In this document: piece after piece, positions 8,245-46,821 of the stretch
Numbering within the stretch: position 1 is the stretch's first letter
Layout of the letters: each line of letters begins with the position of its first letter
DNA from: a bacterium
GTDB taxonomy: Bacteria > Zixibacteria > MSB-5A5 > GN15 > FEB-12
DNA: 51,434 nt
NCBI GenBank assembly: GCA_029211095.1
Contig: JARGFS010000003.1
Span: 1-51,434, forward strand
Direction: 5' to 3'
Translations under genes and position numbers: made by a program
Notes under the pieces: model-generated
Databases searched by the model: none
Told to the model about the DNA's origin: nothing
Seen by the model: the letters and a program-made list of their open reading frames with translations, nothing else

Positions 8245-8290
8245 GATGGTTCCTTTCGGCGGTGAGAACATATTAAAGAACTACATATCC

Positions 8291-15400: not shown

Positions 15401-15635
15401 GGGAGAAATCAGCAGTTACTATCCTGCCCCTATCGGAATTTCAGAACTGTCCGGCAGCGGCAAGGTGGAAGAGAGCTACCTCTCCGCCGGTCTATCTATA
15501 CGCATGCCGCCGGTCTGGTCAGACCAGTCGTTGCAAATCGACTTTCCGTTTTACTTGAATAAACCGGCTGCCGATGAATCCGAGTTTGAATTTCGCCTGT
15601 CGTTTGCCTGGAGTGTGAACGCTGTTCGCCGGTAG
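12438..15635 (+). CDS. M1-family metallo-aminopeptidase with C-terminal putative outer-membrane beta-barrel extension
   Basis: YWQQ.V.Y, WYPQ, GGMEYP, HEIGHQWF-x-DEG; signal peptide; amphipathic C-terminal ~400 aa (VRGY, IDFPFY, FRLSFAW). Start uncertain (TTG 12438 or GTG 12459, both inside queD). Confidence 0.85.
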   Translation: MKRTQPAVNIPASSKLHFLQSYRTALLILLLAFALSATVRASSIAPSGSGRPADYWQQEVNYEMQVSLRADLRTIVGNVQIEYINNSPDSLKVIYFKAFPNAIRKDSYADKKRRSMNDYSLASLKPEQEGRLTLDKDRSVSRGEFTFENSIITYHLDRPLPPNDSARFEFDFTTVLPSPDAMRMGYSRQVTKAAYWYPQVCVYDWKLGWVNSQYIGWGESYGDFGNFDVAITAPENQVVAATGQLVNEAEVLPGDIRSGLDIKNYLLPRSEWPNLNLDKENSKTWHYVAENVPDFVFTASSEFCIDSGSVNGVRVVSYPLRSKAAGWVDAVRLGKKAIETFSELYFPYQWPVIRICDAYGGMEYPMLTNCSGKGPSPFFSMLLYHEIGHQWFMGQVASNPVDRPFLDEGFTTHAEHNAMEKYRGRAGNYVNYKNWYQRKFAPLIENRNARGFRPLYLLMKRGYDKPMTFSFDQGEEYWTYRVSAYYKSAAMHYSLRSIFGDSLYYRTMHQYCDRWFFGHPYENDFTAVFEEVTGTELDNYLQQWYYGRKRTDYAYTGRSRAEQGRYYEHKIKLRNKGRFVSPIDVAIIWKQGDTTLYTVSPEGMAYAKPGYVSLPVWPQFRNLNREYEFTVRAQREIKKIVIDPFNLLVDLERRNNSSDFLPPIELKLDNMKFDRTPLYEYALRWRPDLWYTKANGVEIGAHWHGSYLEVDDRISLDARVGTESVRPFIDFRLSDQSSLLGRNGYAGWRVLRSDRRTYVSQWFEKRFQSRLTIANYNTLRLEMNSLDLSSHQLSRFQPLPSELQEYLPESTWDGNTTYYMNVLFEHSRTFRYGTFFWETAANSGLYKELLSHRGFVIHEEKISLALTRKSKNYLELSLEYLGTTGVPPSQFIPHLSRASAAYAFVNAPLFRGRGTIPEGWTDNFYLSGSRVRGYQDRNVYLTEAMSGSLELIPPDLLPYRWFGKVPLIGNFLSGIDQSFFCDLAVVSLGEISSYYPAPIGISELSGSGKVEESYLSAGLSIRMPPVWSDQSLQIDFPFYLNKPAADESEFEFRLSFAWSVNAVRR

Positions 15636-19724: not shown

Positions 19725-19818
19725 TCTTAACTCATTGCTTGGGTAGTGGTTAGCATGTCTCAATATGAACCAGAGAAATGATTTCCGCAACGGAAAAGAG
19801 CTTTGTAAAACAAGGCCT

Positions 19819-19870
19819 TTACCGCCTAAATCCGGCGGTAAGCTTAAGAAGCAGAGCGGTTTTCCGATAG
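19819..19870 (+). promoter_or_regulatory. Inverted-repeat operator plus sigma-28-like promoter of the giant-protein operon
   Basis: TTACCGCC-N7-GGCGGTAA (19819-19841) then TTAAG-N14-TCCGATAG (19844-19870), 8 nt before ATG 19879. Confidence 0.45.
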
Positions 19871-19878
19871 TTGCTATA

Positions 19879-22800
19879 ATGGAAACTTCTCGGCTCAAAA
19901 TCGTCATATTGGCTCTACTGACAGTGGTTTTCCCCGCCTCGGCCGGGGCTACCAACTACTATGTCTCGCCCACCGGCTCCGATGCAGCCGATGGACAGAC
20001 CATATTGACTCCATGGCTGTCAATTGAGAACGGTGAAAAAACCGGCGTGCTGGCTCCGGGGGATTCCATCTTTGTTCTGTCCGGTTCCTACAGTCGCACT
20101 ACCGGCGCAAGTTTTCCAACCTCTGGTACGGCTGTCGCTCCCATCGTTTATACTTCACTGGGGAAAAAAAGGCCACTCATTGACTTTGGAAACAGTGGCG
20201 ATGTGGCCATAAGTCTGGTTGGGAACCATATCAATTTTAAGAACATTGCAATCACCAATGGAAATAACAGCGGTATTGAGATTGTCGGTGATTCCATTTA
20301 TCTGTTTGGATGCCAAATCAGCGGGTTCTCGAAACAAGGTATTCGGGTTCTTGGCAGCTATAATAAAATTGTCGCCAATGTCGTCAATGCGGTCGGAGAC
20401 CGGGGGATAGAGAACGAAGACTCCGGCGAATTTGAAAACGTTTTCTACAACAACACTATCTACGGCTGCGGCAGTCACGGAATAGAATTGCACGCCAAAA
20501 TAAAAAGCAGCCGGGTCTTTAACAACATTGTTGCCGCAAATAACAATGATGGTATCAGAGGGAAAGTAGAAAATGTCTACGGTTTTAATAATGTCTGGGG
20601 AAATCTGGGGAATGACTACTCAGATGGTGCGGTCGACTCAGCCGGGGGAATATCGTTCCAGCCAGGGTTTGTAAATGTCTTATCGGTCCGTTTTGATCTC
20701 AAAAAGAATGCCAAAGAGATTAATGCCGGTCTGGATATCGGCTACCCGTTCAATGGAACGTCACCCGATATGGGAGCTTACGAAAAATATAACAACTACT
20801 TTGTGAGTCCGGATGGCAACGATCAAAACAGCGGACGGCATCCTGATTCGGCTTGGTTATCAATCGATAACGGTGATTCAACCCTCTTTCCCGGTGACAC
20901 TGTATATGTTCTGGCGGGAAACTATAGTAACCCGGTTTCAATAACTGACAGTGGGACTGTTGACGAAGAGATCTTCTATGTTGGCGTGTTGGATTCTGTT
21001 ACAATTGACGGCACGGGAAATTCAGTCACGGTCAGGATTTCCGGAATGTGTATCAAGTGGTATGGAATCGACATAGCGTCATCGACAACTGCGAATATTG
21101 AGATCAGCGGCTCCAAAAACAGACTCGAGAATTGTGATATATCCAATTGCGATCTGTATGGGTTGCTTGTTACAGGTAACGAAAATACCATACAACAAAA
21201 CCGGATTTTTGGAAACCAGAACTCAGGGCTACTGATTTCAGGCAATGAATGTATTGTTTACAACAACAGTTTTTACAACAATGCCCTGTTCGGAATAGAT
21301 GCTTTAGGGAGTACGCTTCATCAGTTCGTCAATAACATCATCAGCGGTTCGGCAACTTCGACCGGTGTAAGAGCGGATGGAGGCAGCCTGCTGTCTTACT
21401 CCATACTGCACAATCTAACTACTCCTTTCACTGGAGGACTATCTGTCTCATCTGATGTGACTTATGATGATCCCCTGTTTGTGGATGCTCCTGGAAGTGA
21501 TTTCAACCTCGGCTCCTTTTCTCCGGCAATTGATGCAGGCGTTGATGTTGGTTTGCCATATAACAACAGCGATCCGGATCTGGGTGCTATCGAAACTGGT
21601 GTTCTGGCTGTTCTTCAAATCAGTCCGGTTATCGATAGTCTGATCTCTGACTCAACATATCAGTTCGATGTTGTTGCCCTGGATTCATCCGGTCTTCCCG
21701 CCGATCCCGGTTTAATAGTCTGGTCACACACCTTCTCTTCAGGTGTGATCAGTTCCGGTGGACTTTTTACACCGGACAAGATTGGGTCCGGAGTGGTAAC
21801 GGTCCAATCTCTGTCCTACCCGGTCAATGGTTCCTCCGCTGTAATGACAGTAGTTCCGGGCGCTTTGTCATCTTTGTCAGTTTCTCCCGATCAAGATACT
21901 GTTTCGGCAGATTCCACCCGGCAGTTTGTGGCTACCGGAATTGATATCCACGGGAACAATACCGGTCTGGTTGGTGACTTGACCTGGTATGTGCTTGGCG
22001 ATATCGGAACCATTGACAGCGGCGGTCTTTTTGATGCCGGTCGGGTCGGGTCTGGACGTATTAGTGTTGTCAGCAGTCTTGGTGCAAGTGGAACGAGCGA
22101 TTCAATTGTAGTGACACCCGGAGCGCTTTCCATATTGTCAGTATCCCCCCAGGCGGCCATTGTAGTACAGGCCGAATCTCAGGCATTTGCTGCCTCCGGG
22201 CTGGATAGTGACTCCAACTTTATTTCTGATCTGACGGACGGCTCTGTCTGGACGACCAGCGATCCGGATGGAAGCGTTGGTGGTTCCGGGACATATACGG
22301 CGGGGAATATTGTATCGTCCCCTTATTACTATGTCAAAGCAACCGATGGAGTCCGGTCGGATTCCGCGCAAATCACCGTCATTGCCAGTGGTGACCTGAC
22401 TCATATCAGAATAGAACTGGCCGATCACTCGGTGGTAGGGGATACAACTCTGTCCTCGGATAACGACAGTACCATTCTCTATGCCCGGGGATATGATGCC
22501 GGATGGACCTTGATAGGTGATCTGGTGGTCGACTGGACCATAACCGGTGTTGATACCATAGGCTCCCTGACAAGCAGTAATGCTCCGCAGACAAATCTCA
22601 TCCTGACAACTCCCGGCCAGTCAGTTGTTCAAGCTACCTACTCCGGCTCCCTGACTGATTCAACGGGACTGATTACCTGCCAGCCGGGTGTGGCGAGCGT
22701 GATGACGATTGTACCTGATACCATGACTCTGACCGCCGGGGAAACTTTCGACTTTGATGTCGTGGTAACGGATGCCGATGGCAACACTCCGGGATTGAGT

Positions 22801-25800
22801 CTGGTTCCGGCGTGGGCACTGCTTGGGGATATTGGCAGTATGGAATCTTTCGGGCATTTTTCGGCATCGACCGTCGGCACTGGGCGGGCGGTGGCCGCGG
22901 CCGGTGGGTTAGCAGATACCTCCGGAGCCATTAACGTAGTGGCAGGAAGTCTTACCAGTCTAATGGTTGTGCCGGACTCAGCAGTGATCCCGACCGACAG
23001 TAGTTTACAGTTTTCGGTCGCGGGATTTGACCTCTTTGGCAACGAGCAATCGACCGGAAATATCACCTGGTCCTTGACCAGTCCTGTCGGCGTGATAGAC
23101 TCCACCGGTTTTTTTGTCCCGACTTCAACAGGTATCACGCAGGCTATCGCCGTCTCTGAATTCGGACCGATTGACACCTCCGCCTATCTTGAAGTCACGC
23201 CCGGCCGATTGGCATTGCTTACAATTAACCCGGACCTGGTGAACATGGTTACCGGAGATAGTCAGAACTTCACTGTATCGGGGAAGGATGCCCTTGGTTA
23301 TTCCACAGCCGTGGGTGGTGTCTCCTGGTCTGTTACAGGAGGCATTGGCGACATCACCTCCTCCGGTTTGTTCACCGCAAGGTCCATTGGTAGTGGACAG
23401 ATTGTGGCTGAAAGCAGCATTGGTGGAGTGACAGATACAAATAGCGCTGTCGTTGTGGCGGCGGGAGTGCCAACCAGACTGTCGATCTCCCCGGATGAAA
23501 TCATGCTGGCGCTGGGAGACTCAACAGATTTTTCCGCCCGCGCATTTGACGAATACTTCAACGAGGTTAGTCCTGGAGAACTCTCCTGGTCCGTTGTCGG
23601 AGCAATTGGTTCCATAGACAGTCTGGGGAGATTCCAGGCAGAATCTGCCGGGACAGGACGGATTGCCGTACACAGTTCCAGTTTCGGGCTGTATGACAGT
23701 ACTTCGTCGGTAGTGGTCGAGGCGTTAACGGTGGCCTCGCTTCCGCTTGGAGATCGGGTCGTCCTGGCCGGTCAATCTGACATTGACATACTAAGATTCC
23801 AGGTCAACAATCTGTACTCGGTTGGCAAGGGGGTCGAAGGTTTCCGTTTCCGAATGCAGAGTACCGGTGCCGGATCAGACGCGGAGATGCTTGCAAATTT
23901 AGACTCGCTCCATCTCTATCGTGAGTCAGTTTCAGACAGTCTGCTGGGCAGCGCTGTTGTTGACAGTGACACCAGCCTGATGATATTTTCATCGCTGACT
24001 ATTCCGATGCTTGACAGCCTGACTTTTTCTGTCCGGGCCGATGTCAGCAGTTTCCCTCATGATGGAGACTTCGCCGATCTCCTGATGATTCCGGCTCTGG
24101 ATGTTGTTAGTTCCGATGGATCAGCAGTGGCCGGTACCGACAGTCTCAATTCCCTGGGACAACTGCTGTTCGACGGACTTACTCGGAGTCAGATTACTCT
24201 TACTCCGGTGGGCCTTGATTCCATAATGCTGACTGACAGCATGTACGCCATAATGATTATTGATATTCCCCGGAACGGCTATGCAGGCGATACTCTGGAG
24301 TTGATCAGTGTTGTCGTGGATACGGCTCTTGGCGGCACTGTCAGCGATCAGGATTTTGACTCGCTTGTCATCTATTCCGACAACGGGGATGACATCTGGA
24401 ACGGAGCCAGTCTGGAGCAGAGGTTGGGCGTTCTGGTTTTCACCGGCAATCGATGGATAAGAAGCGGGCTCTCGTATGAGTTGATCAATCCGCTCAATCG
24501 GCTGTACGTTGCTGCGGCTCTCTCGGCGCAGCCCACACGAGGTGCCGTAGTCGCCTTTGGGATTCCTCTGAATGGGATTCAAGTTACTTCGAACAATGAC
24601 GGCCCTATTGACTATCCGGTTGGAGCCGTTGACAGTATTGTGATAGCCACTTCCGAATCGTTCGCCGTTTCTGTCATCAAGGGGGAGGTTCAGCTCCTTG
24701 TACCCGGCGAACTGTCGGGCGCGCTGACGACCATTGAATTGATAAACAACTTCTATGATCCCTACCAGTTGGACAGCCTCATTTTTGATCTGGAAATCTC
24801 TTCCATTTACCCGGAAACACAGGGGATCAAGGATTCGCAACTGGACAGCCTTCTGCTGGTGGTTCATGACATCTCCGATATTAATCAGCTCGGTTCCCAG
24901 GGAACAGTTGTTTCATCAACATTCCCGATTGACGGTGTGGCTGCCTTTGACTGCCATAACCTGACCCTTGCGGGCGCTGGGAGTCCAGTCTACTTGAGTG
25001 TTCAAGCGGCGGTAAGTCTGGAGTCGGCCAGAAACGGCAATCTCGTCAGCCTCTCGCTTCCGGATTCAAGCAGAATTGTGCTAAGCCCCTCAACGAGTAT
25101 TGAGGCAACTTATCCGCTTCAGGGTACGCTTGGGCATCAGATCGACCGGTTCCCGTTGGCGTCCGCAAGCGCCTATCAAATGGGGAGCCAGACAATCTTT
25201 GGCGGACAGACCCGGCTGCCTGTTTTCGAATTCAGATTGCCTGGCGATGGATACTCTGTAGACAATTTGCGTTCCATCCGTCTGGCCAATCGCGGGAGTT
25301 TGAACGATGGTGCCGCCCTGACCGGAGTGAGCCTTTGGTATGACTGGGAGGAGGACGGACTTACAGCCAATGACTCGCTGGTGTCAACCCTGAGCTATGA
25401 ATCCGGCGAGTGGACTGTTTCCGGAGTCGTCAGAACCATACCTTCGGAAGGGAGCCGTTTTATTGCCACTGTTGATGTTGGCAACACTCAGTTCCTGGCC
25501 GGTACTCTGGAGTTTGTTCTGCCTGTGGGCGGGGTCACCTATTGGTCCGGGGCGGATGGTCCGGATGATGGAGAGTTGGGGAGTCAGGAGAGTCATTTTT
25601 TAATACCGACCGATCGCGTGACGGTGATTTCGTTACAGGGGGAATCGGGTGAAGTGTACCCCGGTGCCACCATTGACCAGCTGCTGACTTTCGCTTTATA
25701 CAATGGGTATGCAGCCACCGATACGCTCTCTATTGAGGCGATAACGTTTACCAACATCTCACGCTCTCAGTCCGGACGTGACTGGGCGGACAGTTCTCTG

Positions 25801-28800
25801 GCCCAGGTCTCACTATACTTTGATTCTGATCATAATCGTCTCTTTGATGAAAGTGACAGCCTGATCGGAACCGGGTACTTTGCCTCCGGTCAATTGAAAA
25901 TGAACGGCCTCAGTGTAAGTCTTCCACCGGAGGAAATAAGTTCATTTTTTGTGTCAGCGGAGCTTTCACTGGCCCAAATAGATCTGGACAGTCTGGCGAT
26001 TTCAATTGAGCAGGCCTCAGACTTTGTTTTTGCCGATACCGGATCAATCTCAGTTAATGGAGACCTCCCGCTGACCAGTGGTGGCTGGAACATAGTTAAC
26101 GGTTCCGTTTCGGATCAATATGAAATGAGCGGATTGCCGCCTACCTCGGTCACTCCGGGAGATACGGCTGTCCTCCTGATGGTATTCAGACCGGCCAGCA
26201 ACGGTGACCGCATAGATACGCTGACTTCGATCACCGTGGAGAACGCTAACACGACCAATGTTGCCAGTGGTGCGGACATATCCAATATGAATCTCTGGAT
26301 GGATATGAATGACAACGCGCTGTATGATTCATCAGACAGTCTGATCGGTTCCTTGAGTTTTGGCGCCTCTCAGCATTGGATCAGCGCTGCCCTGGATTGT
26401 GAGATCGGGCGGACACCACCAAGATTGCTGTTGGTGGCCGATATATCTTCCGGCGCTACTCCGAACCGCCAGTTCCGTGGAAAAATTGTCACTAGCGGTT
26501 GTGGCTACCGGTCGTCAAACAATGGTCCCCTTGATCAGCCCCTGCTAAGTGACCGCCAGGTGACTATTTCAAACGCCGCGCTGGCTATCTCTATGCAAAA
26601 TCAACCGGAGCGCTATACAGTCGGACAAACGATTCATCATCAGCTTACCGTAACCAACAATGGGTTGATACCTCTGCTGGATGTCTCAGCTTATGCAACA
26701 GTAAGCGATTCACTGCTTCTAACGTTGGACAGCAGTCAGATCGGACCGGTGCCTCTCGTTGCAGGCGTTTCAGCCGACTTTGATTTTTATTACACCGCTC
26801 TGGATACCGGAAAAATTGTCTGGCAGTTTCAGGCAACAGCCGATGTCACCGGGGATTCCTCTGTTGTTCTGGTGACAGATTCGATAGAATTTCAGCGGGC
26901 GGTATCGGCGGTGCCGATTCAGTTCGTGAACAGCAATCCGACTTCGGTGACCAGAGGACAGCAAAATGTCTTTCCGCTTAGTTTGACGATCGCTCATCCA
27001 GACACCGATCCGATATCAGCTTCAATCCGGATAGACAGTTTGAGAATCCGGGTTGAGGATGGTTCTGGCAATGGCCGACGGGCAGACTCAACTCTCGCAC
27101 GTCTGGTACTGGCCTCAGGCTACACTAACCTCACTATTTTGGAAACCATGCCAGCCAGCGCAGATTTGTCTCTGATCTTCGGCGAACCGGTAGTTATTGA
27201 TCCTGCGCAGCAAAGAAATTTCTCCCTGCTGGTGGATATTGATAGCGCCGCCGCTGCCGGGAGTTTTGCCATCTCAATAGTAGAGAGTTCCGCAATAGTT
27301 GTGACCGATAACAATAGTTCACAGCCAATCAGCCTTGCACCCGGTCTTGTATTTCCAATGGTTACCGCCTCCTGTCGGATAGATAATCCTTCGGCCAACT
27401 TGTTATTGTCATCGGAGCCGCTCCTTCAGGCCACGGTAAATTACGGGCAGGATGATCTTGACCTGGTGCAACTACTGTTTACTCATCCGGGAGAGTTTGG
27501 AAGTTCTCCAATCCAGGTGACCTCAATGATTGTCAATTTTGTGGACAGCCTGCTCAATCCGATAAGCGCCACACATCTGCTTGAGCGTCTTCAAATCAGA
27601 CGGCAGCAAGTTATTGTGGCCGAGGTTACCAATTTTGGACCGATGGAGGATTCTGTTGAGGTCGTTCTCAATTCGCCGCTGACACTTAATCCCGGTGAGC
27701 AGGATTCACTGGCCATACGAGTCTCATTAGATGATCAGTCGTTATACAGCAACTTTGGACTTATTATCTCCGACAGTACCCGCTTTGTGGTGCGGGATTT
27801 AAGCTCCCATTCCCTGATTGAAATTACGACCGATACTTCCTTGCTGGCCACCGGTTCCGTCTTCCCCATCCACTCCGGCAGCGCCCGTTTGTTGCAACCG
27901 GCCAGTGTCGGCGAAGTCTGCCTGACAACCCACCTCCCGGATGCTGTGGTTGGGGGGAAAGATAGCCTGGCCCTGGTTGACATTACCCTGGAGTATCCTG
28001 CCACGCTCGGTCATTCCTCGGTTATGATTTTTGCCGCTGATCTCAACGTCATGGATTCACTGGGACGACCCCTGAATCCTGACCGGCTGTTTGACAGAAT
28101 CGGATATGTTGTCGACGGCCAAAACCTGACCTACCAGCCTTTTGTTGGAATTGTCAATGGTTCCGCACACTTCACCTTTGGAAGCGGTGTCCGTTTGGAT
28201 CCGGGTGAACAAAAGACAATCTCACTGGTAGGGGATATCGAAGCGGATGTGCCGTTTACGAACTTCTCCGTTTCCATACCGCAGTCCGAAGCCATGGACT
28301 TTAGAGATGCCAACGATACCAACGCTCTCCCCGGACTGGTCAGTGGAGCTTCCTGCGGTGGACAGTTCCCCTTCGTCACCAATACTGCTGATATCTTCCT
28401 TCCGGCCGGTCGACCGCTCTTTGAATGCAGGAAGCTTCCCGTACAAGTCACTGCTCCGGGTCAGGAGATGCTCAAACTGTTTGAAGGAACGCTCACGTAT
28501 GATGGCGATGGCTTGCAGGGGGATGTTTCCATTGAAGGAGTGAGCGGAAAATTTGTTCGAAGACTTTCCGATGGATGGCATACAGCCAGTCCCGGAGAGG
28601 CGCTCACAAGGATCAGCGTGATGGTGGACAGCAGTCTTGCGTGCGAGGATTCGTTACTTACCGGTGACAGTCTTCAGTTGGACTTCCCGCAGCCGCTCAG
28701 TATCAGCAGTGGCGAAAAGGTCACGGTAGAAATCTATGTCTCTCTGGAAGATAATATTCTGCTGGGAAATTACGCACTTAAATTTGATGATTCCGGCTTC

Positions 28801-29208
28801 ATCAAGCTGATCGACAAAAATATTTCAAATGATCTGTTCGCCGCCGGTAACGAGAGTTACCCCCTGTATTCGGCCGAGATTTCAGTTCTCGAAGCAAACC
28901 TCGGCGAGTCGTTTGTGAACTATCCCAATCCGTTTCACCCCTCACTGGGTGAGCAAACAACCATTGCTTACGTGCTCCCCGCTGACGCCCATGTTGATAT
29001 TGAAATATTCACTATTACCGGCAGCCTGGTCGCCCTCATCGCCGACAATCAATTCCGCAGCCAGGGGGCTCATTCCGAAGATACCTGGACCGCACTCAAT
29101 GATCGCGGACTGAAGGTGATCAGCGGAACCTACTATTGCCGCATTACGGCTCGCTACGGTTCCGGGAAAACCGAAGAAGTTCGCAGAAAAGTTGCGGTGA
29201 TCCGATGA
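19879..29208 (+). CDS. Giant (~3110 aa) secreted surface protein: 2 right-handed beta-helix domains, 8 Ig-like repeats, further beta-sandwich repeats, C-terminal FlgD-Ig/T9SS-like CTD
   Basis: Signal peptide from ATG 19879; NY(Y/F)VSP.G.D...PD(M/L)GA(Y/I)E twice; ~87-aa L..L.VSP repeats 21600-23720; C-terminal NYPNPF..T.I.Y..V.I.I(F/Y)...G..V..W...N..G..V.SG.Y. Confidence 0.85.
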   Translation: METSRLKIVILALLTVVFPASAGATNYYVSPTGSDAADGQTILTPWLSIENGEKTGVLAPGDSIFVLSGSYSRTTGASFPTSGTAVAPIVYTSLGKKRPLIDFGNSGDVAISLVGNHINFKNIAITNGNNSGIEIVGDSIYLFGCQISGFSKQGIRVLGSYNKIVANVVNAVGDRGIENEDSGEFENVFYNNTIYGCGSHGIELHAKIKSSRVFNNIVAANNNDGIRGKVENVYGFNNVWGNLGNDYSDGAVDSAGGISFQPGFVNVLSVRFDLKKNAKEINAGLDIGYPFNGTSPDMGAYEKYNNYFVSPDGNDQNSGRHPDSAWLSIDNGDSTLFPGDTVYVLAGNYSNPVSITDSGTVDEEIFYVGVLDSVTIDGTGNSVTVRISGMCIKWYGIDIASSTTANIEISGSKNRLENCDISNCDLYGLLVTGNENTIQQNRIFGNQNSGLLISGNECIVYNNSFYNNALFGIDALGSTLHQFVNNIISGSATSTGVRADGGSLLSYSILHNLTTPFTGGLSVSSDVTYDDPLFVDAPGSDFNLGSFSPAIDAGVDVGLPYNNSDPDLGAIETGVLAVLQISPVIDSLISDSTYQFDVVALDSSGLPADPGLIVWSHTFSSGVISSGGLFTPDKIGSGVVTVQSLSYPVNGSSAVMTVVPGALSSLSVSPDQDTVSADSTRQFVATGIDIHGNNTGLVGDLTWYVLGDIGTIDSGGLFDAGRVGSGRISVVSSLGASGTSDSIVVTPGALSILSVSPQAAIVVQAESQAFAASGLDSDSNFISDLTDGSVWTTSDPDGSVGGSGTYTAGNIVSSPYYYVKATDGVRSDSAQITVIASGDLTHIRIELADHSVVGDTTLSSDNDSTILYARGYDAGWTLIGDLVVDWTITGVDTIGSLTSSNAPQTNLILTTPGQSVVQATYSGSLTDSTGLITCQPGVASVMTIVPDTMTLTAGETFDFDVVVTDADGNTPGLSLVPAWALLGDIGSMESFGHFSASTVGTGRAVAAAGGLADTSGAINVVAGSLTSLMVVPDSAVIPTDSSLQFSVAGFDLFGNEQSTGNITWSLTSPVGVIDSTGFFVPTSTGITQAIAVSEFGPIDTSAYLEVTPGRLALLTINPDLVNMVTGDSQNFTVSGKDALGYSTAVGGVSWSVTGGIGDITSSGLFTARSIGSGQIVAESSIGGVTDTNSAVVVAAGVPTRLSISPDEIMLALGDSTDFSARAFDEYFNEVSPGELSWSVVGAIGSIDSLGRFQAESAGTGRIAVHSSSFGLYDSTSSVVVEALTVASLPLGDRVVLAGQSDIDILRFQVNNLYSVGKGVEGFRFRMQSTGAGSDAEMLANLDSLHLYRESVSDSLLGSAVVDSDTSLMIFSSLTIPMLDSLTFSVRADVSSFPHDGDFADLLMIPALDVVSSDGSAVAGTDSLNSLGQLLFDGLTRSQITLTPVGLDSIMLTDSMYAIMIIDIPRNGYAGDTLELISVVVDTALGGTVSDQDFDSLVIYSDNGDDIWNGASLEQRLGVLVFTGNRWIRSGLSYELINPLNRLYVAAALSAQPTRGAVVAFGIPLNGIQVTSNNDGPIDYPVGAVDSIVIATSESFAVSVIKGEVQLLVPGELSGALTTIELINNFYDPYQLDSLIFDLEISSIYPETQGIKDSQLDSLLLVVHDISDINQLGSQGTVVSSTFPIDGVAAFDCHNLTLAGAGSPVYLSVQAAVSLESARNGNLVSLSLPDSSRIVLSPSTSIEATYPLQGTLGHQIDRFPLASASAYQMGSQTIFGGQTRLPVFEFRLPGDGYSVDNLRSIRLANRGSLNDGAALTGVSLWYDWEEDGLTANDSLVSTLSYESGEWTVSGVVRTIPSEGSRFIATVDVGNTQFLAGTLEFVLPVGGVTYWSGADGPDDGELGSQESHFLIPTDRVTVISLQGESGEVYPGATIDQLLTFALYNGYAATDTLSIEAITFTNISRSQSGRDWADSSLAQVSLYFDSDHNRLFDESDSLIGTGYFASGQLKMNGLSVSLPPEEISSFFVSAELSLAQIDLDSLAISIEQASDFVFADTGSISVNGDLPLTSGGWNIVNGSVSDQYEMSGLPPTSVTPGDTAVLLMVFRPASNGDRIDTLTSITVENANTTNVASGADISNMNLWMDMNDNALYDSSDSLIGSLSFGASQHWISAALDCEIGRTPPRLLLVADISSGATPNRQFRGKIVTSGCGYRSSNNGPLDQPLLSDRQVTISNAALAISMQNQPERYTVGQTIHHQLTVTNNGLIPLLDVSAYATVSDSLLLTLDSSQIGPVPLVAGVSADFDFYYTALDTGKIVWQFQATADVTGDSSVVLVTDSIEFQRAVSAVPIQFVNSNPTSVTRGQQNVFPLSLTIAHPDTDPISASIRIDSLRIRVEDGSGNGRRADSTLARLVLASGYTNLTILETMPASADLSLIFGEPVVIDPAQQRNFSLLVDIDSAAAAGSFAISIVESSAIVVTDNNSSQPISLAPGLVFPMVTASCRIDNPSANLLLSSEPLLQATVNYGQDDLDLVQLLFTHPGEFGSSPIQVTSMIVNFVDSLLNPISATHLLERLQIRRQQVIVAEVTNFGPMEDSVEVVLNSPLTLNPGEQDSLAIRVSLDDQSLYSNFGLIISDSTRFVVRDLSSHSLIEITTDTSLLATGSVFPIHSGSARLLQPASVGEVCLTTHLPDAVVGGKDSLALVDITLEYPATLGHSSVMIFAADLNVMDSLGRPLNPDRLFDRIGYVVDGQNLTYQPFVGIVNGSAHFTFGSGVRLDPGEQKTISLVGDIEADVPFTNFSVSIPQSEAMDFRDANDTNALPGLVSGASCGGQFPFVTNTADIFLPAGRPLFECRKLPVQVTAPGQEMLKLFEGTLTYDGDGLQGDVSIEGVSGKFVRRLSDGWHTASPGEALTRISVMVDSSLACEDSLLTGDSLQLDFPQPLSISSGEKVTVEIYVSLEDNILLGNYALKFDDSGFIKLIDKNISNDLFAAGNESYPLYSAEISVLEANLGESFVNYPNPFHPSLGEQTTIAYVLPADAHVDIEIFTITGSLVALIADNQFRSQGAHSEDTWTALNDRGLKVISGTYYCRITARYGSGKTEEVRRKVAVIR

Positions 29209-31211
29209 AGAGATTAATTGTCATAACTCTTCTGTTGTTAAGTGTGCCCCTTTCGGTGCGGGGAGGGGAGGCTGGTACCGAAACTCCCTTTGCGATGGGA
29301 GCAGGGGCGGCCGATATATCTCTCTCCGGTTCGGCAATCGCCAGTTCCGCCGGTTGGACGGCAGCTTACTGGAACCCTTCCCGGCTGGCCTCTATTCAGC
29401 AGACGGAGTTAGGGGGATTCCACACCCGACTTTTTGATAGCGATGTTTCTTATCAGTATTTGGGCGTTGCTCACCCAACCCTGGATTGGGGAACTTTTGG
29501 TTTTGGATTGTTCCGCCTGGGGATTGGCGGAATTGAGAAGCGGGATGCATCGAACCTGTACCTCGGCGATATCGAAGACAGCCGCCTGGGACTGCTCCTG
29601 GCCTATGGTCGGGTAATATCCAACTACCGGATTGGACTGGCCCTGTCAATGGAGCACCATTCCATAGACAACTACAAGTCAACTTCATCCCCCGGTCTCA
29701 ACCTGGCTGTTTCGCGGGCGTGGGAGATGGGTGGACGAATCAGGGGTGTTACGGCCGCTCTGGTCATGTACAACGTTTTGAGCCCATCGATGAAATTGGA
29801 TAATGAAGATGTGTCTCTGCCACTCTCCACCGGGGTTGGGGTAACCATTCCAGTACAGCCGAACAGAAATTGGGATCACCTGGTTAATCTCCATCTGACC
29901 TTAAATAAAGTTGATGCGCTGCCGGCCCAGATAGCAGTCGGTGTTGAGTACAGCGTAGGCAATTTGCTGACTCTGAGAGGCGGCGCCAACGATGGAAAGC
30001 TGACCTCCGGGGTCGGACTCAAGCTTATGTCGGTCGGGTTTGATTACGCCTTTGTGGATCGGGACCTCGGCACCCTCCATATGTTCAACCTGACCAGTTC
30101 GTTTGGGAAAAGCAAATCATCCAAACGACAGGAACGAGCGGCCCGCCGGGAACGGGAGTTTAATGAATTGATGTCGCAGCAGTTAACGGCCAGCAACGAG
30201 AAGATGCTGCAGCAGCTCCTGAATCGGGGAGAGGAAGCCCTTGAAGCGGGAGATTTGGAGAAGGCTGAAAGTCAGTATGATCGGGCTCTGTTCCTGGCCC
30301 GTTCTTCCGGTTCAGATACTGCTCAAATCTATTCGACTCTCAACGAGGTTCGCGAAAGATTGAGCGAAGTCCAGCGTTTGCAGCAGTACAACGACCGTCT
30401 TGACTCCGCCCAGGTGAATCTGGCCGCCCATGATTATCTTGCCGCTCGGTACTATGCATCATTGGCTCTTGAATTTGTGGAGAATTCTGATGAGGCTCAA
30501 CAGGTCATAAAGGAAGCCGAAGAAAGCCTGCGGCGTGAGAGCTCCCGCGAGGAGCTAATCAAGCAGCGCACACTCCTTTCTGACTCACTGGTCAGCTACG
30601 GACGCACTGACGAAGCCATCAATGTTCTTATGAGCCTGGTTGAGATAGCGCCGAATGACAACAGTATCCTTATGGCTCTTCGGAGAGCCCAGTTTGAGCG
30701 ACTCCGGGCGAAAGCTTCGCAGGCCTACAGCAATAAGCGGTTGAACAGCGCTCTGGTCAGTCTGGATTCAGCCCTCGGTTACTTCCCCGGACACCAGTGG
30801 TGCGAAGAGATGAAAAGCATGATCACCGGACAGATCAAGTCGATCGACCCCGGTCAGCCAACCAGAAAGTCCGGAAAAAAGACAGTTCTGAGCGCGGAAC
30901 TGCAAAAAGAAGTGTCGGACAGTTATAAGGAGGGGCAACGATTGTTTACTTCGGGGAACATGACCGCGGCTATCGAGAATTGGGAAAAGGTGGAACGGAT
31001 TTTGCCGGACTATGCCTCGGTCCGTGAGTATCTGATCAATGCCTACAAATTTGTCGGCGTCGAGCTGTATAGCCGGGGAGAGCTTGAGGAGGCGGTATCC
31101 ATCTGGAGAAAGGCAGCCTTCCTGCGGCCGGACAACCAGGAGATTGCCGAGTACATCAAGAGAACCGAAAACGAAATAAGAAAACTGAAAGAACTATCCT
31201 ATGAGCAGTAA
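29205..31211 (+). CDS. PorV/PorQ-like (UPF0164/FadL-type) outer-membrane barrel fused to C-terminal TPR region
   Basis: ATG 29205 overlaps the upstream TGA (ATGA); signal peptide; MGAGAADISLSG..AAYWNPSRLA PorV-type motif; LTLRGG..G.G..FDYAF; then TPR helices. Confidence 0.8.
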   Translation: MKRLIVITLLLLSVPLSVRGGEAGTETPFAMGAGAADISLSGSAIASSAGWTAAYWNPSRLASIQQTELGGFHTRLFDSDVSYQYLGVAHPTLDWGTFGFGLFRLGIGGIEKRDASNLYLGDIEDSRLGLLLAYGRVISNYRIGLALSMEHHSIDNYKSTSSPGLNLAVSRAWEMGGRIRGVTAALVMYNVLSPSMKLDNEDVSLPLSTGVGVTIPVQPNRNWDHLVNLHLTLNKVDALPAQIAVGVEYSVGNLLTLRGGANDGKLTSGVGLKLMSVGFDYAFVDRDLGTLHMFNLTSSFGKSKSSKRQERAARREREFNELMSQQLTASNEKMLQQLLNRGEEALEAGDLEKAESQYDRALFLARSSGSDTAQIYSTLNEVRERLSEVQRLQQYNDRLDSAQVNLAAHDYLAARYYASLALEFVENSDEAQQVIKEAEESLRRESSREELIKQRTLLSDSLVSYGRTDEAINVLMSLVEIAPNDNSILMALRRAQFERLRAKASQAYSNKRLNSALVSLDSALGYFPGHQWCEEMKSMITGQIKSIDPGQPTRKSGKKTVLSAELQKEVSDSYKEGQRLFTSGNMTAAIENWEKVERILPDYASVREYLINAYKFVGVELYSRGELEEAVSIWRKAAFLRPDNQEIAEYIKRTENEIRKLKELSYEQ

Positions 31212-32787
31212 TTCCAGTGATGTCCTCCAGCAGGAGTGGCCGCAATCGTCGGAGTTTAAAAAATCGATCCGGATGGAGTTCTCCATATATATCTCTTCCA
31301 TGATTTTCCTCCTTATGATCATTGCCGGATCGGTCATTATGGATAGATATGTTGATTCGGTTACGCAGGCAGCGGCTGACAAACTTCTGGTACAGGCCCG
31401 TTCCTATTCCGGACCGGCGGGGAAGTTGATCATCTCAACCACCGGACCGGATGCGTTGCTACTTAACAATATCTGTAAGAAACTGGCTGCCGACAACTCG
31501 GACATTATATGGGTTGCTATTACCGGCCGCGAAGACACTCTTTTGGCTCATACCGATATTTCCAAAGTGGCCAAGGGGGGAAGTCTGACTCCGGTAATTG
31601 GGGGAGAATACCCCTCGCTATTGAGAAACGGAGAAGGTTTCAAGTTAGCTGATGAGACTATCAACATCTCTGTTCCTATTGCCGAAGGCGACGTCAAGAT
31701 TGGGCACCTTCACCTGTCTTCATCGGCAGCAAAAATCTCTGAGGCGCGACAGGACTCCATTGTCGCGGTGGCAACGATTTCGGTACTGGCTCTTCTTCTG
31801 GGTCTGCCTCTTATTATGATCGGGCTGCACCGAAAACTCAAACCGATCAGTACGATTACCGATCACCTCAAGGATATCAGATTTGATAACATTCAATTGG
31901 ATATCCCGGTTACCGGCCGCAATGAACTGGGCTACCTGGCTGAGACTCTTCGGGTCATGGGGGGAAAACTAAACGCCGCTCAGAAAGAGATGATTGAGGC
32001 TGAGAGGATTTCCCGCGAGTTTGAAATCGCCCGGGAGATTCAGTCCAGCATGCTTCCTTCGGCCATCCCGACCAACGATCATTACAGTTTCACCGGCTTC
32101 TATCGCAGCGCCAAGGAAGTGGGGGGAGATTACTACGATTTCATTAAACTAAGCGATACCAAAGTTGCCTTTCTGGTGGCCGATGTATCAGGAAAATCGT
32201 TGCCGGGCATGCTGGTCATGCTATTGACCAGAGATATTGTCAAGAAGCATTGCTACCGAACGCATGATCCGGTCTCGCTGATATGCAAAGTCAACCAGGA
32301 ACTGCTGGCTAACATCAAGAAGGGTATGTTTGTAACCATGTTCTATGGTGTGCTGGACTATTCAACCGGAACTTTCAGTTTTGCCTCGGCCGGGCACAAC
32401 CCTCTGATAGTTATGAACGATCACCAGGCGCCGCGCCTGATTAAGACCAAGGGATTCCCATTGGGAATGGTCCCTCCGGACCAATTTGACCGTCGGATAG
32501 AACGGGGCGAGATTGTTCTGAAGCCTCATGACTGGTTGGTCCAGTATACCGATGGTGTAAATGAAGCTCAGAATCAGGACCACCGGGAATATGGAATGGA
32601 TCGGCTGGTCACCCGGTTGCACAACTCTGTTATGTTCGGCCCGGAACAGATGATTGATGCAATTGTGGCAGATCTTGATCAATTTGTAGGTGAACAGCCA
32701 CAATTTGATGACATCACCCTGATAGCTATGAAATTTGGTTTGAAATCTGTCGATAGTAATTCTATGAAGAAGGAAGTGTGCTATTAA
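31201..32787 (+). CDS. Membrane sensor HAMP-PP2C (SpoIIE/RsbU-family) phosphatase
   Basis: TM-periplasmic-TM, HAMP (NELGYLAE), EIAREIQ, VGGDYYD, ADVSGK, SAGH, YTDGVNEA, DDIT. Confidence 0.93.
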   Translation: MSSNSSDVLQQEWPQSSEFKKSIRMEFSIYISSMIFLLMIIAGSVIMDRYVDSVTQAAADKLLVQARSYSGPAGKLIISTTGPDALLLNNICKKLAADNSDIIWVAITGREDTLLAHTDISKVAKGGSLTPVIGGEYPSLLRNGEGFKLADETINISVPIAEGDVKIGHLHLSSSAAKISEARQDSIVAVATISVLALLLGLPLIMIGLHRKLKPISTITDHLKDIRFDNIQLDIPVTGRNELGYLAETLRVMGGKLNAAQKEMIEAERISREFEIAREIQSSMLPSAIPTNDHYSFTGFYRSAKEVGGDYYDFIKLSDTKVAFLVADVSGKSLPGMLVMLLTRDIVKKHCYRTHDPVSLICKVNQELLANIKKGMFVTMFYGVLDYSTGTFSFASAGHNPLIVMNDHQAPRLIKTKGFPLGMVPPDQFDRRIERGEIVLKPHDWLVQYTDGVNEAQNQDHREYGMDRLVTRLHNSVMFGPEQMIDAIVADLDQFVGEQPQFDDITLIAMKFGLKSVDSNSMKKEVCY

Positions 32788-33551
32788 TGACTGTTGATTA
32801 CACAAAAAAGAAGATGCTCACATTGCCGGTAGAGATCGGATTTGAACATCAGCAGGAGTTTATCTCCAAATTGAAAGAGTCTGTCAGGCAGACTGAGCAT
32901 GATCTGCTTGTTGACTGTTCAAAAGTTGAACAGGTTACTTCGACCCATGTGAATATGCTCTGGAGAGCCTATTCGCTCTGCAAAGATTACGGTCTCAAGA
33001 TGACCTTGTGCAACCCTACCGAGGGCGTCATTCGGGTCCTCAACGCGCTCGATCTTGGCGACATGTTTTTTATCGAGCAAGGTCTGAAAGACTCAACCGG
33101 CGGGCAGACCAAAGCAACCGAATTTGCAGGTTTGGATGACAGCCTGGAACTGGAAATCAAACTTGAATCCAGGCAAATATCTCTGGGGCTAAAACGTCTG
33201 CAGGAGTTTTTGAGGAGAGTCTCCATCGCTCCCGCCATCCTGGTGGAGATAGAGACAATCTTCTACGAATTAGCTACCAATATAAATCTGCATAGTGGTC
33301 TTTCTAACGGCGATAGTCTGCATTGTTCTGTGGTACTAACTGACAAGAGAGTTACCCTGACCTTTGTCGATGCCGGGGTTCCGTTTGATCCCTCCTCTGT
33401 CGAAGTCGGGTACGATCCCAAGTCTATGATATCAAATTACAAGAAACGCGGACTGGGGCTGGTGATGATTCAACGGATGGCAGATTCTATCAGTTATGAA
33501 CGACGGAATGGCCAACAGAACGTTGTTACGGTTACGAAAGACGGGAGATAG
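32787..33551 (+). CDS. STAS + RsbW-type anti-sigma/Ser kinase (HATPase_c_2) fusion
   Basis: N-terminal STAS (LLVDCSKVEQVTST..L); YELATN..H, DAGVPFDP, RGLGL..I..MAD boxes; TAATG overlap with PP2C stop. Confidence 0.85.
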   Translation: MTVDYTKKKMLTLPVEIGFEHQQEFISKLKESVRQTEHDLLVDCSKVEQVTSTHVNMLWRAYSLCKDYGLKMTLCNPTEGVIRVLNALDLGDMFFIEQGLKDSTGGQTKATEFAGLDDSLELEIKLESRQISLGLKRLQEFLRRVSIAPAILVEIETIFYELATNINLHSGLSNGDSLHCSVVLTDKRVTLTFVDAGVPFDPSSVEVGYDPKSMISNYKKRGLGLVMIQRMADSISYERRNGQQNVVTVTKDGR

Positions 33552-33554
33552 CCG

Positions 33555-33893
33555 ATGTCAGACAGTACCATAGTTCAGCAGCAGATTGATGACCATTCTC
33601 TCAACATTAAGACTTCGGAAGTTCTCGATAATAGCAATGCGCACGAGATGATTGAAGTGTTGACCGAGGCACACCAGAGAGGAATTGAAAACGTCACAAT
33701 TGATATGAGTGATCTCTGTTTTATCTCTTCCGCCGGAGTCGGGTCTATCCTTGGTACGGTTGAGCTCTTTCGTGAAACGGGTGGAGATATCCATCTTTGC
33801 AACCTGAGACCGCCCGTGACCCATGTGCTCGAAGTGCTTGATCTGACTGACTATCTGACGGTGCAGAGCGAAGTGAAGGAAGCTGTTGACTAA
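33555..33893 (+). CDS. STAS-domain anti-anti-sigma factor (RsbV/SpoIIAA-like)
   Basis: IDMSDLCFISSAGVG with phospho-acceptor Ser, GG.I.L.NL...V..VL. Confidence 0.9.
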   Translation: MSDSTIVQQQIDDHSLNIKTSEVLDNSNAHEMIEVLTEAHQRGIENVTIDMSDLCFISSAGVGSILGTVELFRETGGDIHLCNLRPPVTHVLEVLDLTDYLTVQSEVKEAVD

Positions 33894-33906
33894 ACAGTCA
33901 TCTTGA

Positions 33907-35583
33907 GTGAATGGAATGACACCAGAAACAAGACAATTTATAGACAACTACACCGGCGATGAGCTCTCCTTCAAGCGCAATATGATGGCTCTTGATGCTC
34001 TGTCCAAGCTGGCCCGCCGTTTCTCCAACCATCCCGATCTGCAGCACCTCTCTTCATTGCTGCTGCTCACCCTGGCCGGTCAGTTTTCAATCAGCAGTGC
34101 CTTTGCTCTCTACTGTGACCCCAGCCTGTCTGAGTCCGGTTTGGCCTATATGGGACTGGGTAAATTTATGGACCACTCGGACCTGAGAGAGATTACCATC
34201 CCCGATTGTATACGTGAACATTTTGTCTCTCACCCGGACCCGGTTCAAGTAGACGAATATGAATCCATGGTAGCGTGCCAGGAGATAAAGGAACTGTTGG
34301 TAGCCAATCAGGTTAAGGTTGTAGTCCCGCTAGTGCATAAAGATGGTTTGATTGGCATCCTCGGTCTCGGCGAGAAAGTTACTAAAAAAGAGTTTGAAAA
34401 TAACGACCTGGAGATTCTGAGTACGCTGGCGCATTCCCTCACTCCCTTTATCTCCAACTCAATACTTTTCAGGGAGCTGTCCGACCTGAATTGCTGGTAT
34501 GTTGACATCCTGAGTTCAGTCAAGCAGGCTGTTCTCATCTTTGATAGTGACTATCGATTGAAACTGGCCAATCTCTCTGCTGCCAGCATTTTGGAAAAAC
34601 TACGCGAAGATGCCGCTGTCATTGGCAACAATAAGCCAACCATTGACGAGCTATTCTCCCAATCAGCCTTTCCCGGTTGGTCAAGCCGTATCAAAAACGC
34701 CCACATTCTGGGAGCAGCCGGAACACTTGAAAATCTGGTTGCCTGCGTTGGGGAGGACGAGCTGATTTTCAATGTCCGGACGGGCAGTTTCAAAAGAGAC
34801 AACCGCTCAGAGTTCGACATCTTTGTTACGCTCGATGACGTCACTGACCAGAAGGCGAGTGAGCAACGTCTTTTTGAGGTAGAGAAATTTGCTGAAAAAG
34901 GAGTTATGGCCTCAACCATCTCCCATGAATTGAATAACTTCCTCGGCCTCATCCTGGGTGGAACAGAACTGGCCGGTATGGCTCTGGCCAAAGGGAACAC
35001 CGAGAAGGTCGCCGCTACCCTGGAAAAGATCAAAAAGAACGTCGGAAAGATGGAACGGTTCACGGCCGGATTGGTCGACTATACGCGGCTGAACACTAAG
35101 AAGAGTGAAACGAATCTCAACAGTGTCATAACCGATGTGTTATCGTTTGTTGCCGTTCAAAAGAAATTCACTCGTATTGCCATTACCACGGAACTGGCCA
35201 AAGAAATTCCTCCCTTTGTTGTCGATGCCGATCAGATGTCACAGTTGATTATGAACCTGGTGAACAATGCCGCCGATGCCATCATAGATTCCCGCAAACC
35301 GACCAGGAAGATAGCCGTCTCAACCAGATTTGAGAACGGGAATGTTATCCTGGAAATATCGGACAATGGAAAGGGGATTGATCCGGAACTCAAGGGTAAA
35401 CTGTTCAAAGCTCACTTCACTACCAAGGAAAAAGGGCATGGCTACGGGCTGGTCACCTGCTCAAAAATCATTGATAACCACAAAGGGAAAATTGAGATTG
35501 AATCCGAGGTTGGCCAGGGGGCTACTTTCAGACTCTCCTTCCCGGTTGATCAATCAGTCGAGTCACAGCCCTCGGCCGTCTGA
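33907..35583 (+). CDS. Cytoplasmic GAF/PAS sensor histidine kinase
   Basis: GAF-like VPL...LIGILGLGEK; H-box ISHELNN; NLVNNAADA, DNGKGI, FTTK..GHGYGL, G.GATF. Confidence 0.92.
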   Translation: MNGMTPETRQFIDNYTGDELSFKRNMMALDALSKLARRFSNHPDLQHLSSLLLLTLAGQFSISSAFALYCDPSLSESGLAYMGLGKFMDHSDLREITIPDCIREHFVSHPDPVQVDEYESMVACQEIKELLVANQVKVVVPLVHKDGLIGILGLGEKVTKKEFENNDLEILSTLAHSLTPFISNSILFRELSDLNCWYVDILSSVKQAVLIFDSDYRLKLANLSAASILEKLREDAAVIGNNKPTIDELFSQSAFPGWSSRIKNAHILGAAGTLENLVACVGEDELIFNVRTGSFKRDNRSEFDIFVTLDDVTDQKASEQRLFEVEKFAEKGVMASTISHELNNFLGLILGGTELAGMALAKGNTEKVAATLEKIKKNVGKMERFTAGLVDYTRLNTKKSETNLNSVITDVLSFVAVQKKFTRIAITTELAKEIPPFVVDADQMSQLIMNLVNNAADAIIDSRKPTRKIAVSTRFENGNVILEISDNGKGIDPELKGKLFKAHFTTKEKGHGYGLVTCSKIIDNHKGKIEIESEVGQGATFRLSFPVDQSVESQPSAV

Positions 35584-37504: not shown

Positions 37505-37701
37505 TTGGGTAAAATATACTAAATCCTGCCAATTTTCAAAGCATCATTTCATCACCTGTCGGCGGTCTGGAATTGAAAATTGATGTCAACCGACCTCAGG
37601 CCAAAAATCAGAAATCGCTTGAAAACGGTAGAGGACCTGCTTAATTTTCGGAACATTTTATAGTTTATCCCACTGTCGGGCCATTACTTCAGGAGGTGTT
37701 T

Positions 37702-46790: not shown

Positions 46791-46821
46791 CTTTTTTCTC
46801 CGTTGGTAAATTCATGTTCTG

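Follow-up and report, generated by a model that had tools for sequence, protein, structure and literature searches.

A conserved six-gene block of Zixibacteria encodes a giant CTD-bearing protein, a TPR-tailed PorV-like barrel and a candidate phospho-switch

Why would a giant secreted protein, an outer-membrane barrel and a set of phospho-switch proteins be encoded in one block of genes? The question is raised by a 51,434-nt stretch of DNA from a bacterium of the phylum Zixibacteria (MSB-5A5; GN15; FEB-12), which is contig JARGFS010000003.1 of GenBank assembly GCA_029211095.1, positions 1 to 51,434 of the forward strand, and is called the window here. Six open reading frames (ORFs), all on the + strand, lie at 19879-35583 of the window, and an earlier note on this DNA had proposed that they form a trans-envelope signalling system. 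The reading that we prefer, with a probability of roughly 0.55, is that a cargo protein and its dedicated anchor are coupled to a partner switch similar to SiaABC, of which the output is a kinase and not a sigma factor, and that the six genes thereby constitute one module. Domain calls were made by Pfam and NCBIfam profile scans of the window proteins, and the features of the block are as follows.

19879..29208, + strand: giant secreted protein, 3109 aa, with a signal peptide, two beta-helix regions, Ig-like (Big_2) repeats and a C-terminal sorting domain (CTD)
28909..29205, + strand: the CTD (residues 3011-3109), with NYPNPF at its start, from profile matches
29205..31211, + strand: outer-membrane PorV-like barrel with a TPR tail, 668 aa, from the signal peptide, NF033709 and TPR families
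29271-30107, + strand: barrel part (residues 23-301), from the alignment to PorV
30210-31208, + strand: TPR tail after a charged linker (residues 336-668), presumed periplasmic, from TPR matches
31201..32787, + strand: inner-membrane phosphatase, 528 aa, with transmembrane (TM) segments TM1 29-47 and TM2 187-205, HAMP 209-262 and PP2C/SpoIIE 301-512
31342-31755, + strand: periplasmic sensor of the phosphatase (residues 48-185), single-Cache-like by its relatives
32787..33551, + strand: gene 4, STAS plus RsbW-like serine kinase (HATPase_c_2), from Pfam
33555..33893, + strand: gene 5, single-domain STAS protein of the anti-sigma-antagonist type, from Pfam and TIGR00377
33907..35583, + strand: gene 6, soluble sensor histidine kinase with GAF-like, PAS-like, HisKA and HATPase_c parts

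The giant gene is translationally coupled to the gene of the PorV-family barrel by a 4-nt stop/start overlap, ATGA at 29205-29208. The barrel and PP2C phosphatase genes overlap by 11 nt (31201-31211), and the phosphatase gene meets gene 4 in the letters TAATG at 32785-32789, because of which ATG 32787 is most likely the start of gene 4; an equivalent start is shared by the gene 4 orthologues. Genes 4 and 5 are separated by 3 nt (33552-33554) and genes 5 and 6 by 13 nt (33894-33906), where gene 6 begins with GTG 33907 and has a later ATG at 33916. The co-orientation of the six genes and every junction given in the earlier note agree with these coordinates and letters. Promoter and terminator scans of the block gave nothing exceeding the shuffled controls.

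The block is conserved as a whole, and we call blocks of this kind A-type to distinguish them from a paralogous B-type cluster described below. Of 40 relatives, 14 have a full-length orthologue of the barrel-TPR protein, and the order of the six genes was kept in all of the loci fetched from relatives (14/14), at 34-80% identity. A scan of a collection of 185,579 species genomes gave 50 loci. The set of six is complete and in order in 41 of them, eight end at a contig edge with every gene there in order, and one (L096) is decayed. A second GTDB phylum (18 genomes, including the genome of L074) has the barrel-TPR protein in 9/18 genomes, and the order was kept in 7/7 fetched loci. An arrangement that returns in every intact locus examined goes well past what chance would give. 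The earlier note had made its proposal depend on the gene order in relatives, and on this point it stands. Within Zixibacteria, the A-type barrel-TPR protein occurs in 79/285 genomes, in 59/198 of the high-quality genomes and in 10/20 families. The 4-nt overlap of the cargo stop and the barrel start is present in 13/14 A-type and 17/20 B-type loci, and the barrel and PP2C genes overlap by 11-17 nt in 11/14 A-type loci; the remaining overlap values are artefacts of choosing the first in-frame ATG. The conservation of the genes flanking the block in the window is limited to the same genus, the flanks differ even within the family, and a recurrent seventh gene, either a regulator or a sigma factor, was not found, the largest neighbour cluster covering 4 loci. 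From the conserved order, the differing flanks and the overlaps together, we conclude that the six genes are a discrete, co-inherited unit, and they are probably co-translated, judging from their junctions. Two A-type copies of the barrel-TPR gene are present in some genomes (G285, G105 and G079), and both copies of G285, the genome of L074, stand within full six-gene blocks (L074 and L109, on contigs C170 and C62). The one decayed locus belongs to a complete genome.

L096:6730-16126: decayed block, with a 925-aa unrelated CTD protein, a 533-nt gap, a 219-aa TPR-only fragment, the phosphatase, gene 4 and a 115-aa ORF without a STAS match; the giant gene, the barrel and the kinase are missing

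The giant protein matched Beta_helix with an E value of 5.2e-15 and Big_2 with 1.1e-4, the latter slightly under the cut-off. About 1700 central residues have no family match, a sub-threshold CARDB hit being the sole Pfam trace there, and self-BLAST detected no internal repeats at E 1e-3. The orthologues are 2508-3386 aa long, variable in the N-terminal part and conserved over roughly the last 2000 aa. The tail of the protein matched models of CTD-bearing type IX secretion system (T9SS) proteins, namely the tails of NF052323 (2e-8) and PorU (1.3e-5). Against TIGR04183, the CTD is borderline, with 23.6 bits in the genome-wide search (cut-off, 23) and 17.8 bits in the whole-protein scan, and it is among the weakest of the 38 CTDs over the cut-off in the genome. 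A profile of the orthologous A-type tails matched 44 other CTD-bearing frames of the genome. The CTD is the only part shared by the A-type and B-type cargos (28% identity, 104 aa), and neither CTD stands out from the CTD family of the genome. A special CTD class common to the two cargos was considered and rejected, as the B-type tail ranks 19th against the A-type tail profile.

The second protein matched the PorV family model NF033709 with E 3e-18 and 66.5-67.8 bits over profile positions 9-325 of 326, which is below the 90-bit cut-off; the paralogous barrel on contig C96 reached 108 bits, over the same cut-off. A joint profile built from 17 A-type and B-type barrels had as its sole PDB match PorV of the SprA complex (6h3i_F; E 4.4e-13, 177,635 sequences). 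The alignment runs from the first strand of PorV through residue 398 of 402. Because it stops at the last strand, the barrel should end near residue 301, and the last ~365 residues are an added tail, in which several TPR families match residues ~335-650. The PorV/PorQ family has the fold of a 14-stranded FadL-like barrel, and the usual topology of even-stranded barrels puts such a tail in the periplasm. We therefore infer a periplasmic location of the TPR tail. Its last block (residues 561-668) is the most conserved part of the whole protein, with a mean pairwise identity of 0.56, whereas the barrel reaches 0.50 and the remaining TPRs 0.35-0.38, and this conservation of the distal block fits a conserved partner.

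The genome of the window was searched as an assembly of 3.06 Mb in 241 contigs. Its T9SS core includes SprA and PorU besides the 38 CTD matches; the PorU gene is split across two contigs, with a PorV fragment beside it. Since a T9SS is present, the giant protein is a plausible cargo, and we infer that it would be exported by the general T9SS. The PorV family (NF033709) has 17 matches in this genome, 8 of them over the cut-off, and a CTD-bearing gene lies directly upstream of 6/11 PorV-like genes (5 loci), the PorU-PorV pair included. A barrel dedicated to one CTD protein, as the earlier note had supposed, thus has precedent in the same genome. Further pairs of this kind, a CTD protein followed by a PorV-like barrel, are found on contigs C110 (L100:3721-10170), where a TonB-dependent receptor-like gene lies just 5' of the pair, and C165 (19126-23695), where two PorV-like genes stand in tandem. 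On contig C3 (L099:91-5815), a 765-aa PorV-family barrel carries an N-terminal extension with a Reg_prop match, and the gene after it encodes an FG-GAP protein of 1129 aa that bears a T9SS CTD. The PorV-family barrels of this genome seem prone to domain fusions.

The remaining four genes encode the parts of a phospho-switch. The phosphatase matched SpoIIE/PP2C with E 2.6e-44 and HAMP weakly (2.1e-3), and the PP2C residues D310, D328, D451, D503 and D504 are invariant in 14/14 sequences. In the PDB, the PP2C profile matched RssB, 6k4e (5e-14), which we take to be SiaA, Rv1364c (3ke6, 3.4e-11) and SpoIIE structures. Gene 4 matched STAS with E 1.4e-10 and HATPase_c_2 with 3.6e-15, and its N-box/G-box residues E161, N165, D195, G197, G222 and G224 are invariant or nearly so among 14 aligned sequences; its STAS part also has an invariant Ser. 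The single STAS domain of gene 5 was matched with E 8.4e-16 by Pfam and with 58.6 bits by TIGR00377 (cut-off, 53.45). Its Ser58-Ser59 pair, presumably at the position of the phospho-serine of SpoIIAA, is invariant in 15/15 aligned sequences, one of which comes from the paralogous cluster. Gene 6 matched HATPase_c with E 1.3e-23, and HisKA was called at 22.1 bits (cut-off, 26.9) and GAF likewise below its cut-off. Residues 187-551 align to models of AtoS, ZraS and NtrB, and Pfam made no PAS call in the window's copy; PAS was called in the orthologues of L014 and L023. In these two loci, the last gene encodes a hybrid kinase with a C-terminal receiver domain (L014:1766-4291, 841 aa; L023:1271-4279, 1002 aa), which hints at a phosphorelay downstream. 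The domain assignments of the earlier note hold for the surface protein of about 3100 aa ending in an NYPNPF CTD, the PorV-like barrel with its TPR tail, the membrane protein with a periplasmic part between two TM segments followed by HAMP and PP2C, the STAS-RsbW fusion and the STAS protein. Its GAF/PAS kinase agrees with a soluble histidine kinase; in this copy, the GAF label has a sub-threshold match and the PAS label no Pfam call.

By tblastn of the six proteins against the window's genome, one further place with a barrel-TPR protein, an RsbW-like domain and a sensor phosphatase was found, running from contig C96 to contig C103.

C96 1-4547 (L097) and C103 1-4035 (L098): paralogous (B-type) cluster, the phosphatase gene being interrupted by the contig end

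The order in this cluster is a CTD cargo tail, a 609-aa PorV-TPR protein, an RsbW-like-TM-sensor-HAMP-PP2C protein, a 232-aa STAS-like protein, a 553-aa GGDEF protein and a Wza-like export protein. An unbroken B-type locus (L033) encodes a 1228-aa protein whose end resembles a CTD, a 607-aa PorV(UPF0164)-TPR protein, a 683-aa HATPase_c_2-TM-sensor-TM-HAMP-SpoIIE protein, STAS and GGDEF proteins and, at its 3' end, Poly_export/SLBB (Wza-like) and then Wzz/GNVR genes. The first three genes are in order in 20/20 of the fetched B-type loci, and the GGDEF and export genes are present in 19/20. The B-type barrel-TPR protein occurs in 200/285 Zixibacteria genomes, and a search of the second phylum's 18 genomes gave no phosphatase of the B-type. 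Thus, cargo, barrel-TPR protein and sensor phosphatase are common to the A-type and B-type clusters, whereas the fusion of the kinase domain and the output enzyme differ. In the B-type, the membrane phosphatase carries the kinase domain in its own chain, STAS is the only free component, and a diguanylate cyclase gene stands next; the cluster looks like a Sia-type switch heading an exopolysaccharide locus. In the window's genome, TPR-tailed barrels (tblastn E 1.3e-10) and PP2C proteins aligning over the sensor are confined to these two clusters. Two other PorV-like frames of the genome are also long, and the one that was inspected has no TPR. Because each has only the other cluster as its BLAST-level relative, the barrel and the sensor phosphatase appear to have diverged as a pair. 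The B-type STAS genes fall into two lengths, 129-147 aa and 222-282 aa (loci L028, L033, L036-L039, L042 and L044). For the short genes, the extension is found in another frame right 3' of the stop (two high-scoring segment pairs), and a run of 11 A stands at that stop in L033 (15340-15370), which could be a slippery or phase-variable site or a homopolymer assembly error.

The periplasmic sensor of the phosphatase was placed by its relatives. The window's sensor domain alone had no Pfam match at E up to 5, and the PDB search with the sensor region gave no match. Aligned with the B-type sensors, it is 10-18% identical, and the joint profile of A-type and B-type sensors matched 1257 representative proteins at E up to 1e-3. 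Among the best 150 of these, 98 are at least 400 aa long, and 79 of the 98 were scanned for domains. sCache_3_2 (PF17203) was present in 50 of the 79, with a best E value of 1.8e-26, together with HAMP in 66, SpoIIE in 51, HATPase_c_2 in 28, HATPase_c in 22 and a cyclase domain in 11. The make-up HATPase_c_2-sCache-HAMP-SpoIIE occurs in 28 of the 79. The phosphatase sensor is, by these profile matches, a predicted member of the single-Cache family. Small molecules are the usual ligands of Cache domains.

Under the preferred reading, the barrel would receive the giant protein and hold it at the cell surface, in the manner of PorV with PorU and of PorQ with PorZ. The adjacency of the cargo and barrel genes and their ATGA overlap hint at a binding of the CTD by the barrel. 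The single-Cache-like domain in the periplasm would set the activity of the cytoplasmic PP2C domain via HAMP. On the STAS protein, the conserved serine would receive a phosphate from the RsbW-like kinase of gene 4 and lose it again through the PP2C; the domains and catalytic residues of such a switch are present, and its biochemistry is predicted from them. The unphosphorylated STAS protein may then bind and modulate the soluble histidine kinase, as SiaC activates SiaD. The histidine kinase is taken as the regulated enzyme because of the analogy to Sia and because the B-type cluster ends in a diguanylate cyclase. The cue of the sensor would most likely be tied to the cargo or the anchor, in the form of surface engagement, secretion load or the state of the envelope.

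Several observations weigh against this reading. The A-type block is patchy in the phylum and has decayed at one locus. A response regulator or a target of the kinase was not found near the block across the loci, and BLAST gave no similarity that would reveal a common N-terminal domain of the A-type kinase and the B-type cyclase. In the B-type, the barrel and phosphatase genes lie 11-133 nt apart without overlap, and a STAS gene was detected in 14/20 loci, with no STAS match by tblastn in 6/20. Moreover, since single-Cache domains usually bind small molecules, the cue of the sensor need not come from the cargo or the anchor. An exploratory covariation ('mirror-tree') analysis bears on the possible contacts. 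For 12 domains, or 66 pairs, partial correlations were calculated from the pairwise distances minus the mean of the other domains, using 42 unique loci of 70 (14 were dropped, with a domain covered to less than 80%); the sequences are related, and the ranks come with no significance estimate. The HAMP-kinase N-half pair ranked 1st, the pair of cargo body and middle TPRs 2nd (0.35), PP2C-STAS 5th and gene 4-STAS 11th, followed by CTD-barrel at 20th, TPR_C-sensor at 23rd, TPR_NM-sensor at 43rd and barrel-sensor at 64th. As far as it goes, this analysis recovers expected enzyme-substrate pairs and points to a relation of the TPRs with the cargo over one with the sensor.

The rank of the cargo-TPR pair would suit an ordinary small-molecule switch that regulates the adhesin operon or a linked behaviour, with the TPR tail acting as a dock or chaperone for the cargo, or as a link to the T9SS ring, and carrying no signal. 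The sCache_3_2 domain in most of the scanned sensor relatives and the separate barrel and phosphatase genes of the B-type point in the same direction, and the TPR proteins PorW and PorE are T9SS parts according to the available portions of PMC8754138 and PMC12773672. However, an unconnected switch does not explain why the six genes are strictly co-inherited amid unrelated flanks in every intact locus, why the same triad recurs in the paralogue with a different output enzyme, or why barrel and sensor phosphatase diverged as a pair, and we consider it somewhat unlikely. A true trans-envelope relay makes the opposite demand on the tail: the TPR arm would touch the Cache-like domain and pass on the occupancy or pull of the cargo, so that adhesion, pull or loss would change STAS phosphorylation and thereby the kinase or, in the B-type, the cyclic di-GMP cyclase. 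The adjacency of the barrel-TPR and sensor-phosphatase genes in both clusters, their overlap in most A-type loci, the strong conservation of TPR block 561-668 and the periplasmic side on which barrel topology places the tail are all consistent with such a contact. On the other hand, the TPR-sensor pairs ranked only 23rd and 43rd of 66, where the expected PP2C-STAS pair ranked 5th, and the sensor is a predicted member of the single-Cache family; the relay is a tentative proposal that we regard as doubtful.

The CTD of the cargo, while in the periplasm, might itself be the ligand of the sensor, the switch then gauging secretion load. Such a role has a precedent in the binding of PorY by the CTD of PorA in Porphyromonas gingivalis, as described in the available part of PMC12152298, and cargo, barrel and sensor are always encoded together. 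Two results speak against it, namely the CTD-sensor partial correlation of -0.04 (rank 59 of 66) and the ordinary nature of the A-type and B-type CTDs, and it is very unlikely. The last reading is the classical partner switch, to which the earlier note had also appealed, where the RsbW-like domain of gene 4 would hold a sigma factor whose gene lies elsewhere, with the kinase gene as a separate passenger. Gene 4 does match the RsbW and SpoIIAB models, weakly and far under their cut-offs (6.1e-5 and 1.1e-4), and a sigma gene of the extracytoplasmic function (ECF) type lies 12 kb downstream in the window (47400-47978, - strand). Yet no sigma gene or response regulator is conserved beside the block, where the flanks vary even within the family, and no intact locus lacks the histidine kinase. 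In addition, the RsbW-like domain of the paralogue is fused to the membrane phosphatase, and therefore cannot be a free anti-sigma factor there. The sigma-factor link is thus dropped; a classical anti-sigma role of gene 4 is unlikely, and this reading as a whole is highly improbable. We accordingly keep the coupling of cargo and anchor to a kinase-ended switch as the preferred reading.

How this module relates to known systems can be judged from its parts. PorU and PorZ reportedly retain their CTDs. The PorU-PorV and PorZ-PorQ pairs of Porphyromonas gingivalis likewise combine a CTD surface protein with a barrel of the PorV/PorQ family, as far as the available text of PMC8754138 goes. Here, by comparison, the barrel has a TPR tail of ~365 residues, the cargo is about 3100 aa long, and both share an operon with a phospho-switch. 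The PorA-PorY-PorX-SigP pathway, whose genes are not known to form one operon, also deserves comparison. In the portions of PMC12152298 and PMC7712824 that were available, a T9SS cargo is likewise involved in passing a signal to an inner-membrane sensor, the CTD of PorA binding PorY (PMC12152298). Unlike the block, this pathway has a histidine kinase as its sensor, a small cargo and an ECF sigma factor at its output, and it is not known to involve a PP2C, a STAS protein or a TPR-tailed barrel.

The SiaABCD system of Pseudomonas aeruginosa is close to the switch part. There, according to the accessible parts of PMC7647112 and PMC8457831, a STAS-like protein has its phosphorylation governed by a HAMP-PP2C protein and a kinase, and it activates a cyclase when unphosphorylated. 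Both have a membrane HAMP-PP2C protein, a Ser/Thr kinase and a STAS-like protein, and in the B-type cluster, even the output enzyme is a diguanylate cyclase. In contrast, Sia lacks any partner that is secreted or sits in the outer membrane, the A-type block has a histidine kinase in place of a diguanylate cyclase as its output, and the serine kinase here shares a chain with a second STAS domain in the A-type and with the phosphatase in the B-type. By analogy, the A-type block may work like Sia, but it would not be a member, as it ends in a histidine kinase and its phosphatase scored 42.3 bits against the SiaA equivalog model (cut-off, 700). PP2C, RsbW-like and STAS parts are also united in one chain in Rv1364c of Mycobacterium tuberculosis and in SypE/SypA of Vibrio fischeri, as given in the available part of PMC10120452. 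Their domains are arranged otherwise, their inputs are cytoplasmic, and they are not tied to secretion. In FecA-FecR-FecI and RcsF-IgaA-Rcs, an outer-membrane component informs an inner-membrane sensor. Their proteins and outputs are unrelated to those of the block, in which a contact across the periplasm is a hypothesis.

The earlier note knew of no description of this architecture, and none was found here. A full-text literature search, in which most subscription journals lay outside the coverage, gave no description of an operon combining a TPR-tailed PorV barrel and its cargo with Cache-HAMP-PP2C, kinase, STAS and output proteins. Under the same coverage, nothing was found on Zixibacteria with type IX secretion or on PorV with partner-switching. 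Taken singly, T9SS cargo, PorV-family barrels and PP2C/STAS switches are familiar; as far as searched, the conserved operon that unites them is new.

The surroundings of the block are a divergent DUF885 gene upstream and a convergent M6-like peptidase gene downstream, the latter missing from a same-genus relative. The window has many peptidase genes of the secreted type, comprising two M6-like, two M14 carboxypeptidase-like and one M1-like. An ECF sigma gene and the two genes that follow it may be a sigma/anti-sigma unit, which is not conserved with the block.

19728..19878, no strand assigned: intergenic space flanked by the divergent DUF885 gene and the giant gene, presumed to hold the promoter of the block
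6208-8271 (-), 35632-37413 (-), 37696-41441 (+) and 12438-15635 (+): stretches of peptidase genes, from domain scans
46059-47978, - strand: ECF-type sigma gene, then a 202-aa ORF without family, then a DUF1573 protein, from domain scans

The block indicates that PorV-family barrels can carry large, presumably periplasmic domains. If the cargo and its anchor are physically coupled to the switch, Gram-negative bacteria would have a new way of sensing events at the surface or in a secretion system, and, if the kinase is indeed the regulated enzyme, the outputs of partner switches would be widened to a histidine kinase. If the relay from the TPR arm to the sensor is true, it would tie surface sensing to the T9SS in a type of pathway for which no phylum offers a known example. 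Even taken conservatively, the six genes are a defined unit, consisting of an adhesin, its private anchor and its private regulator, in a phylum known from metagenomes alone.

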